Origin: Escherichia coli
Lineage (GTDB): Bacteria; Pseudomonadota; Gammaproteobacteria; Enterobacterales; Enterobacteriaceae
Reading direction: 5' to 3' (one strand)
DNA: 64,000 nt
Assembly: GCF_003334355.1 (NCBI RefSeq)
Contig: NZ_QOWP01000019.1
Shown here: piece after piece, positions 20,329 to 20,887 of the stretch
Position numbering within the stretch: position 1 is the stretch's first letter
Layout of the letters: each line of letters begins with the position of its first letter
Notes under the pieces: model-generated
Told to the model about the DNA's origin: nothing
What the model saw: the letters and a program-made list of their open reading frames with translations, nothing else
Database searches by the model: none
Translations under genes and position numbers: made by a program

Positions 20329-20363
20329 ATAAAAAAAGGGAGCACTGTATTCACAGCGCTCCC
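20329..20363 (-). terminator. csrB intrinsic terminator
   Basis: Minus strand gggagcgctgtgaatacagtgctccc followed by TTTTTTT. Confidence 0.9.
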
Positions 20364-20697
20364 GGTTCGTTTCGCAGCATTCCAGCTACTTTTGTTGCTC
20401 CCTGCTCATCCTTGACAACTTTTCCTCTGGCCTTGCGGCCAATCGTTCATCCTGAACTATTGCTTCCTGCTCACACCACCCCGATGTGATACTTCATCCT
20501 GAAGTGTCCCTGGCCTTCCTGACCCACCGAATCATCCTGACCGGTTCTCATTCTCCATCCTGGAGGTGTCCTTTAACGCGTCCTGCGTCATCCTCTTCGC
20601 TTCATCCAGAAGCCTTTCCCTGAAACACCATCCTGGTGTGTCCTGCAGAAGTGTCATCATCCTGATGTTCACTTCGTTGTCTGACTCCCTGTCGACG
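20329..20697 (-). ncRNA. csrB: CsrB, CsrA-sequestering sRNA
   Basis: About 369 nt; plus strand carries repeated catcctg / tcctg units (minus-strand CAGGATG GGA motifs); 5' end GTCGACAGGGAGTCAGACAACGAAG; 3' end is an intrinsic terminator. Confidence 0.95.
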
Positions 20698-20869
20698 AAG
20701 ATAGAATCGTCTTTTTCGCGAAGTCTTACAAGGCGCTTACAGACAATGCCTTAAGGAAAATTTCATATGAAAGTTAAGAATTAACAATCAACATTTTGAT
20801 TTTAAATGAAAATAACGATTCTTATCTTTTTAAGTATTCGCTTATTTCCTGGCGATCTCCTACAGAGTC

Positions 20870-20887
20870 TGTAAGAGATCTCTCACA
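20870..20887. promoter_or_regulatory. Near-perfect 18-bp palindrome upstream of csrB, candidate UvrY (BarA-UvrY) site
   Basis: tgtaagagatctctcaca, about 175 bp upstream of the csrB 5' end. Confidence 0.55.

Follow-up and report, generated by a model that had tools for sequence, protein, structure and literature searches.

In enterobacteria, carbon metabolism, biofilm formation, motility, and virulence are under the global control of a central regulatory cascade, which runs from BarA-UvrY through CsrB/CsrC to CsrA. In Salmonella, the regulatory elements of csrB have reportedly been characterized by Martinez et al. in 2014. The CsrB RNA of E. coli contains 22 GGA motifs, typically CAGGA(U/A/C)G, most of which are inferred CsrA sites (Vakulskas et al. 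2016, PMC5027483). RNase E cleaves this RNA at A327 and A331, CsrA bound at GGA 20 and 21 blocks the cleavage, and CsrD relieves the block (PMC5027483). The binding of UvrY upstream of the gene was described by Zere et al. 2015 (PMC4682653), and what we cite from that paper refers to excerpts of its text. According to these excerpts, the phospho-UvrY site of E. coli csrB, TGTGAGAGATCTCTTACA, is centered at -183/-182 and was defined by ChIP-exo and DNase I footprinting, with protection of the repeat tried for both the phosphorylated and the non-phosphorylated protein; an auxiliary element, TGTAGGAGA, lies 5 bp downstream of the repeat and is called "partially conserved." UvrY crosslinking at csrB spans -222..-142, and a second, downstream crosslinking zone at -56..+25 gave no in vitro footprint (PMC4682653, in excerpt). 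The same excerpts report that binding of UvrY at csrB in vivo is lost in a barA mutant, that a putative IHF site lies between the two crosslinking zones, and that UvrY binding and csrB expression reach their full level only with IHF. The model in which DNA bending repositions UvrY is a proposal of Zere et al. and is unproven (PMC4682653, in excerpt).

Three related systems provide the nearest comparisons. The SirA box of Salmonella csrB is the same 18-nt box, centered at -182/-181, with TGTAGGAGA as the auxiliary element and an IHF site (PMC4682653, in excerpt). This gene is an orthologue in another genus, and its RNA sequence differs from that of E. coli (Rfam 367 bits); in S. enterica arizonae (locus L059), the box is identical and lies 191.5 nt from position 1 of the Rfam model, as it does in E. 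coli. The second system, csrC, resembles csrB in having a UvrY-footprinted upstream element with a good left half-site, but its right half is degenerate, and the excerpts of PMC4682653 give it no apparent IHF site and no IHF dependence. Finally, the general UvrY/GacA box, TGTAAGN6CTTACA, is found upstream of rsmX/Y/Z in Pseudomonas and of csrB1/2 in Shewanella (PMC3171408). It shares with the enterobacterial box the outer hexamers, the 6-bp center, a regulator of the FixJ/NarL type, and a CsrA/RsmA-titrating sRNA as output (PMC3171408), whereas the enterobacterial box is more constrained, lies unusually far upstream (~-183), and has a conserved third half-site beside it.

We analyzed a 64,000-nt stretch of E. 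coli DNA (hereafter, the window) with regard to the identity of the gene, the content and accessibility of its motifs, the match of the box to the published site, and the conservation of the box, the spacing, the third half-site, the IHF core, and the promoter hexamers. The features of the locus are as follows, with positions relative to the transcription start in negative numbers.

20328..20696, minus strand: csrB, a 369-nt non-coding CsrA-sponge RNA with its start at 20696 and its 3' end at 20328
20328..20363, minus strand: intrinsic csrB terminator with an 11-bp stem (20363..20338) and, after it, TTTTTTTATT; terminal helix of the Rfam consensus
20364..20380, minus strand: unstructured segment just 5' of the terminator, containing the published necessary RNase E site, mapped by position (PMC5027483)
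20703..20708, minus strand: putative -10 hexamer GATTCT, at -12..-7, matching TATAAT at 3 of 6 positions
20726..20731, minus strand: putative -35 hexamer TTGTAA, at -35..-30, with a 17-bp spacer
20789..20801, minus strand: probable IHF site AATCAAAATGTTG, at -105..-93, read from the sequence as a fit to the IHF consensus WATCAANNNNTTR
20852..20864, minus strand: auxiliary third half-site, TGTAGGAGA(TCGC), at -168..-156, 5 bp downstream of the inverted repeat
20870..20887, no strand assigned: UvrY (SirA/GacA-type) box, an 18-bp imperfect inverted repeat reading TGTGAGAGATCTCTTACA on the csrB strand, centered at -183/-182
11229..13985, plus strand: barA, the sensor kinase phosphorylating UvrY, a 918-aa ORF of the BarA equivalog NF008318

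The locus is the known E. coli csrB with its published UvrY site, and the original prediction is thus correct but describes what has already been published. A covariance-model search against Rfam matched RF00018 (CsrB) at 20687..20328 on the minus strand over the entire model (1-356 of 356), scoring 380.4 bits (E = 1e-110), where the gathering score is 71. In the annotation of MG1655, csrB (b4408) is a 369-nt ncRNA, and all 369 of its nucleotides were the same as those of the window at 20328..20696. The 200 nt upstream were also identical, bringing the total match to 20328..20896; because gene and upstream region equal those of MG1655 base for base, we set the transcription start at 20696. The full-length Rfam match and the identity to the annotated K-12 gene bear out the prediction of a csrB sRNA at this place. 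The gene lies between syd (20907..21452; SecY-interacting protein, NF003439) and yqcC (19956..20285), all three on the minus strand, and the ORFs that overlap it are short and unsupported. A terminator scan placed an intrinsic terminator with an 11-bp GC-rich stem and a T-run at its end (20363..20328).

Compared with the described csrB and its UvrY-IHF promoter in MG1655 (PMC4682653, in excerpt; PMC5027483), the gene, the 200 nt upstream, the position of the box, the auxiliary half-site, and the 22 GGA motifs are all the same. There is no difference between the two; the window carries one and the same locus from a different E. coli genome. It therefore contributes no new biology, each of its elements having been mapped experimentally between 1997 and 2016. 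The 1-kb csrB region was found in 5,426 of 5,426 complete E. coli genomes, and many chromosomes, including those of bovine and human isolates, were 100% identical over it. Matches to the region in E. coli genomes numbered 5,449; one was located on a plasmid record, and some genomes had two places. In 23 E. coli genomes, no place covered at least 80% of the query. The RefSeq record NZ_AP018808.1 (3786565-3790565; locus L002) lacks a csrB feature in the interval from yqcC to syd despite a sequence that is 100% identical; since MG1655 carries the annotation and this record does not, the sRNA is absent from at least some automated E. coli annotations.

The motif content of the RNA agrees with a CsrA sponge. 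On the minus strand, the 369 nt contain 22 GGA triplets, against 2 on the opposite strand and a background across the whole window of 5.0 per 369 nt on average (sd 2.6), which makes csrB the maximum of the window. This count equals the 22 given for E. coli CsrB in PMC5027483, in line with the sponge function initially proposed. The accompanying claim of at least eight canonical CAGGATG units was an overcount. Exact copies number six, starting at 20664, 20635, 20562, 20539, 20501, and 20454 on the minus strand; the whole 64 kb holds 15 on that strand, so that 6 of 15 fall inside these 211 nt of csrB. Shorter or looser forms are more numerous, with 8 copies of AGGATG, 9 of GGATG, and, in our own reading of the motif positions, 9 of CAGGA[A/C/T]G. 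The variants AGGAAG, AGGACA, and TGGATG, which had also been named, are present in 2, 2, and 1 copies, respectively.

We further examined the predicted structure of the RNA. Its minimum-free-energy fold has -120.7 kcal/mol (z = -3.85 against shuffles), with 9 of the 22 GGA wholly in hairpin loops and 16 fully unpaired, while the last GGA (+335) is hidden within the stem of the terminator. The Rfam CsrB consensus structure presents the same row of short hairpins with AGGA in the loops. In the predicted fold, the segment at 20364..20380 is unpaired; the RNase E sites A327 and A331 map to 20370 and 20366 of the window, and GGA 20 and 21 to 20401 and 20383. Binding of CsrA to CsrB and its sequestration by this RNA have been published for the identical sequence (PMC5027483; PMC4682653, the latter in excerpt).

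The element predicted to be a UvrY site reads TGTAAGAGATCTCTCACA on the plus strand at 20870..20887 and TGTGAGAGATCTCTTACA on the csrB strand, which is letter for letter the 18-nt site of Zere et al. 2015 (PMC4682653, in excerpt). Counted from the start at 20696, its center (20879/20878) lies at -183/-182, the position that was published. The resemblance to UvrY-bound sites that had been proposed is thus an exact identity. The position of the 18-bp palindrome also stands, but its perfection does not, the inverted repeat being imperfect with 8 of 9 pairs and a mismatch at position 4/15. Read on the plus strand as TGTAAG AGATCT CTCACA, it fits the general box TGTAAGN6CTTACA (PMC3171408) at 11 of the 12 specified positions. 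The pattern TGTRAGAGATCTCTYACA occurs a single time in the window, even when 3 mismatches are allowed, against 0.02 expected. When the whole window was scanned for a relaxed GacA box (TGTRAGN6CTYACA) with up to 2 mismatches, 4 matches were obtained against 5.25 expected; with zero mismatches the csrB site alone was returned, and no further candidate UvrY targets were found in the window. Two other properties of this stretch were noted. GATC occurs at 20877-20880 (box center) and at 20855-20858 (third element), 22 bp apart, and a 12-bp hairpin can be drawn at 20854-20880 on the minus strand, about 30 nt past the stop codon of syd.

To avoid circularity, csrB orthologues were fetched with a conserved 3' segment of the RNA, TCANGGATGAGCAGGGAGCA (about +282 to +301), which does not contain the box, taking one genome per species. 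The scan returned at least 120 loci; because it required the conserved csrB 3' segment, the divergent csrB/rsmB genes of Yersinia, Pectobacterium, and most Serratia lie outside the sample. Eleven enterobacterial loci with less than about 480 nt of upstream DNA were left out of the box count. Among the matches listed, this yielded 98 distinct upstream regions from about 28 named genera, including Salmonella, Citrobacter, Enterobacter, Kosakonia, Cedecea, Hafnia, Edwardsiella, Pantoea, Erwinia, Mixta, and Izhakiella, and from unnamed metagenome-assembled genomes. Rfam confirmed CsrB in 13 diverse orthologue loci. The transcription starts of the orthologues were assigned by alignment to E. coli.

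All 98 csrB loci among the matches listed contain the UvrY box with at most 4 mismatches, and in 55 of them it is identical to that of E. coli. The original prediction had named absence of the palindrome from csrB orthologues, or from csrC, as an argument against itself; neither absence was found. Measured from the alignment-inferred start, the box center of the 98 listed loci lies at -171..-185, with a mode of -183, and it stands 188-192 nt from position 1 of the Rfam model in most of the 13 confirmed loci (191.5 in E. coli). The consensus of the enterobacterial box over the 98 listed loci is TGTRAGAnATnTCTYACA. Ten of these loci carry the flipped form TGTAAGAGATCTCTCACA, and only 3 of the 98 listed copies are perfect palindromes. 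As a control, the matches listed also included 9 chance hits in unrelated, non-enterobacterial phyla, where the best fit to the box had 7-9 mismatches. Column by column, the orthologue alignment leaves the spacer between syd and csrB 10-40% conserved outside a few islands, and across the 98 listed promoters these are confined to the box, the third half-site, the IHF core, and the two promoter hexamers. The box is the most conserved of them, with most positions at 95% or more.

The csrC gene, which lies outside the 64-kb window, was examined in MG1655. Upstream of it (locus L001, 469-486) we found a degenerate copy of the box, TGTGAGACATTGCCGATA. Its left half, TGTGAGACA, matches the csrB half-site at 8 of 9 positions, its right half, TTGCCGATA, is degenerate, and in our own reading of the sequence the element is self-complementary at only 4 of 9 positions. 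A TGTAAG is located 16 bp upstream of it, and the element together with this hexamer is the same as the published UvrY-footprinted site (PMC4682653, in excerpt).

These data also bear on three other readings of the box, none of which we consider probable. The one that survives best, though at long odds, makes the box a Dam-sensitive switch in which hemimethylation after replication modulates UvrY binding. Among the matches listed, GATC is present at the center of the repeat in 77 of 98 loci and in the third element in 72 of 98, which would suit such a switch; however, positions 8 and 11, which define the GATC, are among the least conserved of the box, and about 21% of the listed taxa lose GATC while otherwise keeping the box. 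A GATC at the center arises automatically from the half-site consensus ..GAGA|TCTC... Dam is not discussed in the excerpts of Zere et al. (PMC4682653), and our literature search returned no paper whose title or abstract links Dam to csrB transcription. Because the GATC-defining positions vary most, we rejected this switch as unlikely.

Still less probable is that the repeats act in RNA, as a hairpin at the 3' end of syd that terminates or stabilizes its transcript, instead of as protein-binding DNA. The syd gene is on the same strand with its stop codon ending at 20907, the third half-site can pair with the right half of the box in a 12-bp stem with a 3-nt loop, and a 66-nt segment here folds at -19.5 kcal/mol (z = -2.4). 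The mismatch at position 4/15 in DNA would become a G-U wobble in the syd RNA, and double changes that are symmetric occur in some orthologues (GACATGTC and GATATATC, for example). Against this, neither stem is followed by a U-tract, and the terminator scan is blank there. The flipped TGTAAGAGATCTCTCACA of 10 orthologues among the matches listed would produce an A-C mismatch in RNA while being equivalent for a symmetric dimer, and conservation tracks the half-site units (TGTRAGA) rather than stem complementarity. The element is accounted for by UvrY, whose protection of it against DNase I has been published (PMC4682653, in excerpt). An RNA-level role of the box region is conceivable, but would be secondary at most.

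The weakest reading, a chance palindrome in an AT-rich intergenic spacer with no role of its own, has a negligible probability and is ruled out by the orthologue conservation: 18-mers with at least 8 of 9 self-complementary pairs are indeed common (10 in the window against ~5.9 in shuffles), and another one, AACTTTCATATGAAATTT, lies just 95 bp off, but for this specific sequence the expectation is 0.02 per window, the box is at least 95% conserved at most positions against 10-40% in its flanks, its distance from the start site is the same in 98 of 98 loci among the matches listed, and it is the published footprinted UvrY site (PMC4682653, in excerpt). Palindromy by itself is therefore unremarkable in this window, and it is the specific sequence that matters.

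With the box read as the UvrY site, the element next to it deserves attention. In the window, TGTAGGAGA itself occupies 20864..20856. Of the 98 loci among the matches listed, 97 have a third half-site (consensus TGTRRGAGATCGC) downstream of the box, separated from it by 5 bp in 89 cases and by 4 bp in 8. The layout spans at least three enterobacterial families. We tentatively raise the possibility, which we regard as rather doubtful, that the csrB operator is obligatorily three-part, consisting of the inverted repeat and a directly repeated TGTRRGAGATCGC at a spacing of 4-5 bp, about 180-185 bp from the start, with the IHF core between. If so, UvrY would act as a higher-order oligomer, either a dimer with an extra subunit or two overlapping dimers, and helical phasing relative to the promoter would be under selection.

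Between the box and the start, the core of the probable IHF site, ATCA....TT, is conserved at 70-95% or more in the 98 listed promoters, against 10-40% in its surroundings. In the same promoters, TTGT of the -35 and A-11 and T-7 of the -10 reach at least 95%. A sigma-70 consensus scan of 20200..21000 detected no promoter; this is because the -10 is weak and is no evidence against the promoter, and a -10 of this kind needs an activator, as fits an activator-dependent promoter. The -35 TTGTAA overlaps a half-site-like TGTAAGA and sits within the published -56..+25 crosslinking zone of UvrY (PMC4682653, in excerpt). Two half-site-like TGTAAG hexamers are present at 20725-20742 (-46..-41 and -34..-29), both within that zone. 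The second of them, which overlaps the -35, is kept in Enterobacteriaceae and not in Pantoea or Erwinia, and csrC has no equivalent of either. The near-palindrome AACTTTCATATGAAATTT (20758..20775, -79..-62) has 8 of 9 pairs around the core TTTCATATGAAA and is 30-70% conserved in the orthologues among the matches listed.

Taken together, we put a probability of about 97% on the whole account, that is, csrB as a CsrA-titrating RNA with a UvrY-P box at -183/-182, IHF-assisted activation, and RNase E decay, and this analysis found no evidence contradicting it. The literature for the identical sequence is our source for UvrY-P binding, for the requirement for BarA and IHF, for the sequestration of CsrA, and for the pathway of decay. 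In this account, BarA would phosphorylate UvrY, and UvrY-P would bind the repeat at 20870..20887, presumably as a dimer, and probably also occupy the adjacent third half-site (20856..20864). IHF at about -100 may bend the DNA and so bring the distant UvrY to RNA polymerase. Transcription would then start at 20696 from a promoter with a weak -10, driven by phospho-UvrY. The resulting 369-nt RNA is predicted to offer about 20 accessible GGA, many in the loops of short hairpins, to which CsrA dimers would bind and thereby be titrated away from their mRNA targets. Removal of CsrB would proceed through RNase E cleavage just 5' of the terminator, a cut that CsrA on the last two GGA sites would block and that CsrD would overcome.

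The csrB locus is the main output of the BarA-UvrY cascade. The comparison contributes a modest addition: over about 28 genera among the matches listed, the ~183-bp distance is kept along with the box, its third half-site, and the IHF core. This conservation strengthens the published repositioning model and points to the third half-site.

The kinase gene of the pathway is located in the same window, and uvrY is not found in its 64 kb. The ORF at 11229-13985, previously named as barA, matches NF008318 over residues 1-917 with 1623.9 bits, far above the equivalog cut-off of 890, which secures that identification. Of the orthologue loci among the matches listed, 21 extend to 7 kb or more, and 15 of these, L007, L037, L063, and L066 among them, have barA on the opposite strand, a few kb beyond csrB-yqcC-truC-yqcA in the downstream direction; the kinase gene and the gene of the pathway's main output are thus syntenic across the order. 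In several genera, barA appears close behind yqcA, with the middle of the hit ~3.1 kb from csrB. In E. coli, ~4.7 kb separate barA from yqcA, an interval we take to be the gud operon.

Some loci in the orthologue set stood out. In a contig labeled Chryseobacterium sp. 18061 (L122), the csrB locus is typically enterobacterial, its box lying at -183, and two assemblies labeled Enterobacter (E. cancerogenus M004, L054, and E. ludwigii EnVs2, L097) carry csrB promoters of the Pantoea type; all three assemblies are probably contaminated or mislabeled. In Enterobacillus tribolii (NZ_QRAP01000005.1; L076, 7700-9299), three csrB genes stand in tandem about 610 bp apart, scoring 232-239 Rfam bits each. 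Each copy has its own variant of the UvrY box about 190 nt upstream (TGTGAGATATGTCTTACA, TGTGAGACATGTCTTACA, and TGTAAGACATTTCTCACA), which makes this a local triplication of the sponge-RNA gene together with its operator.

Rfam also located three other RNAs in the window: the GcvB sRNA at 38868-39073 on the plus strand (199 bits), a tRNA at 43559-43632 on the plus strand (61 bits), and the ES036/CssrF sRNA at 42089-42131 on the minus strand (46.5 bits against a gathering score of 37.6).
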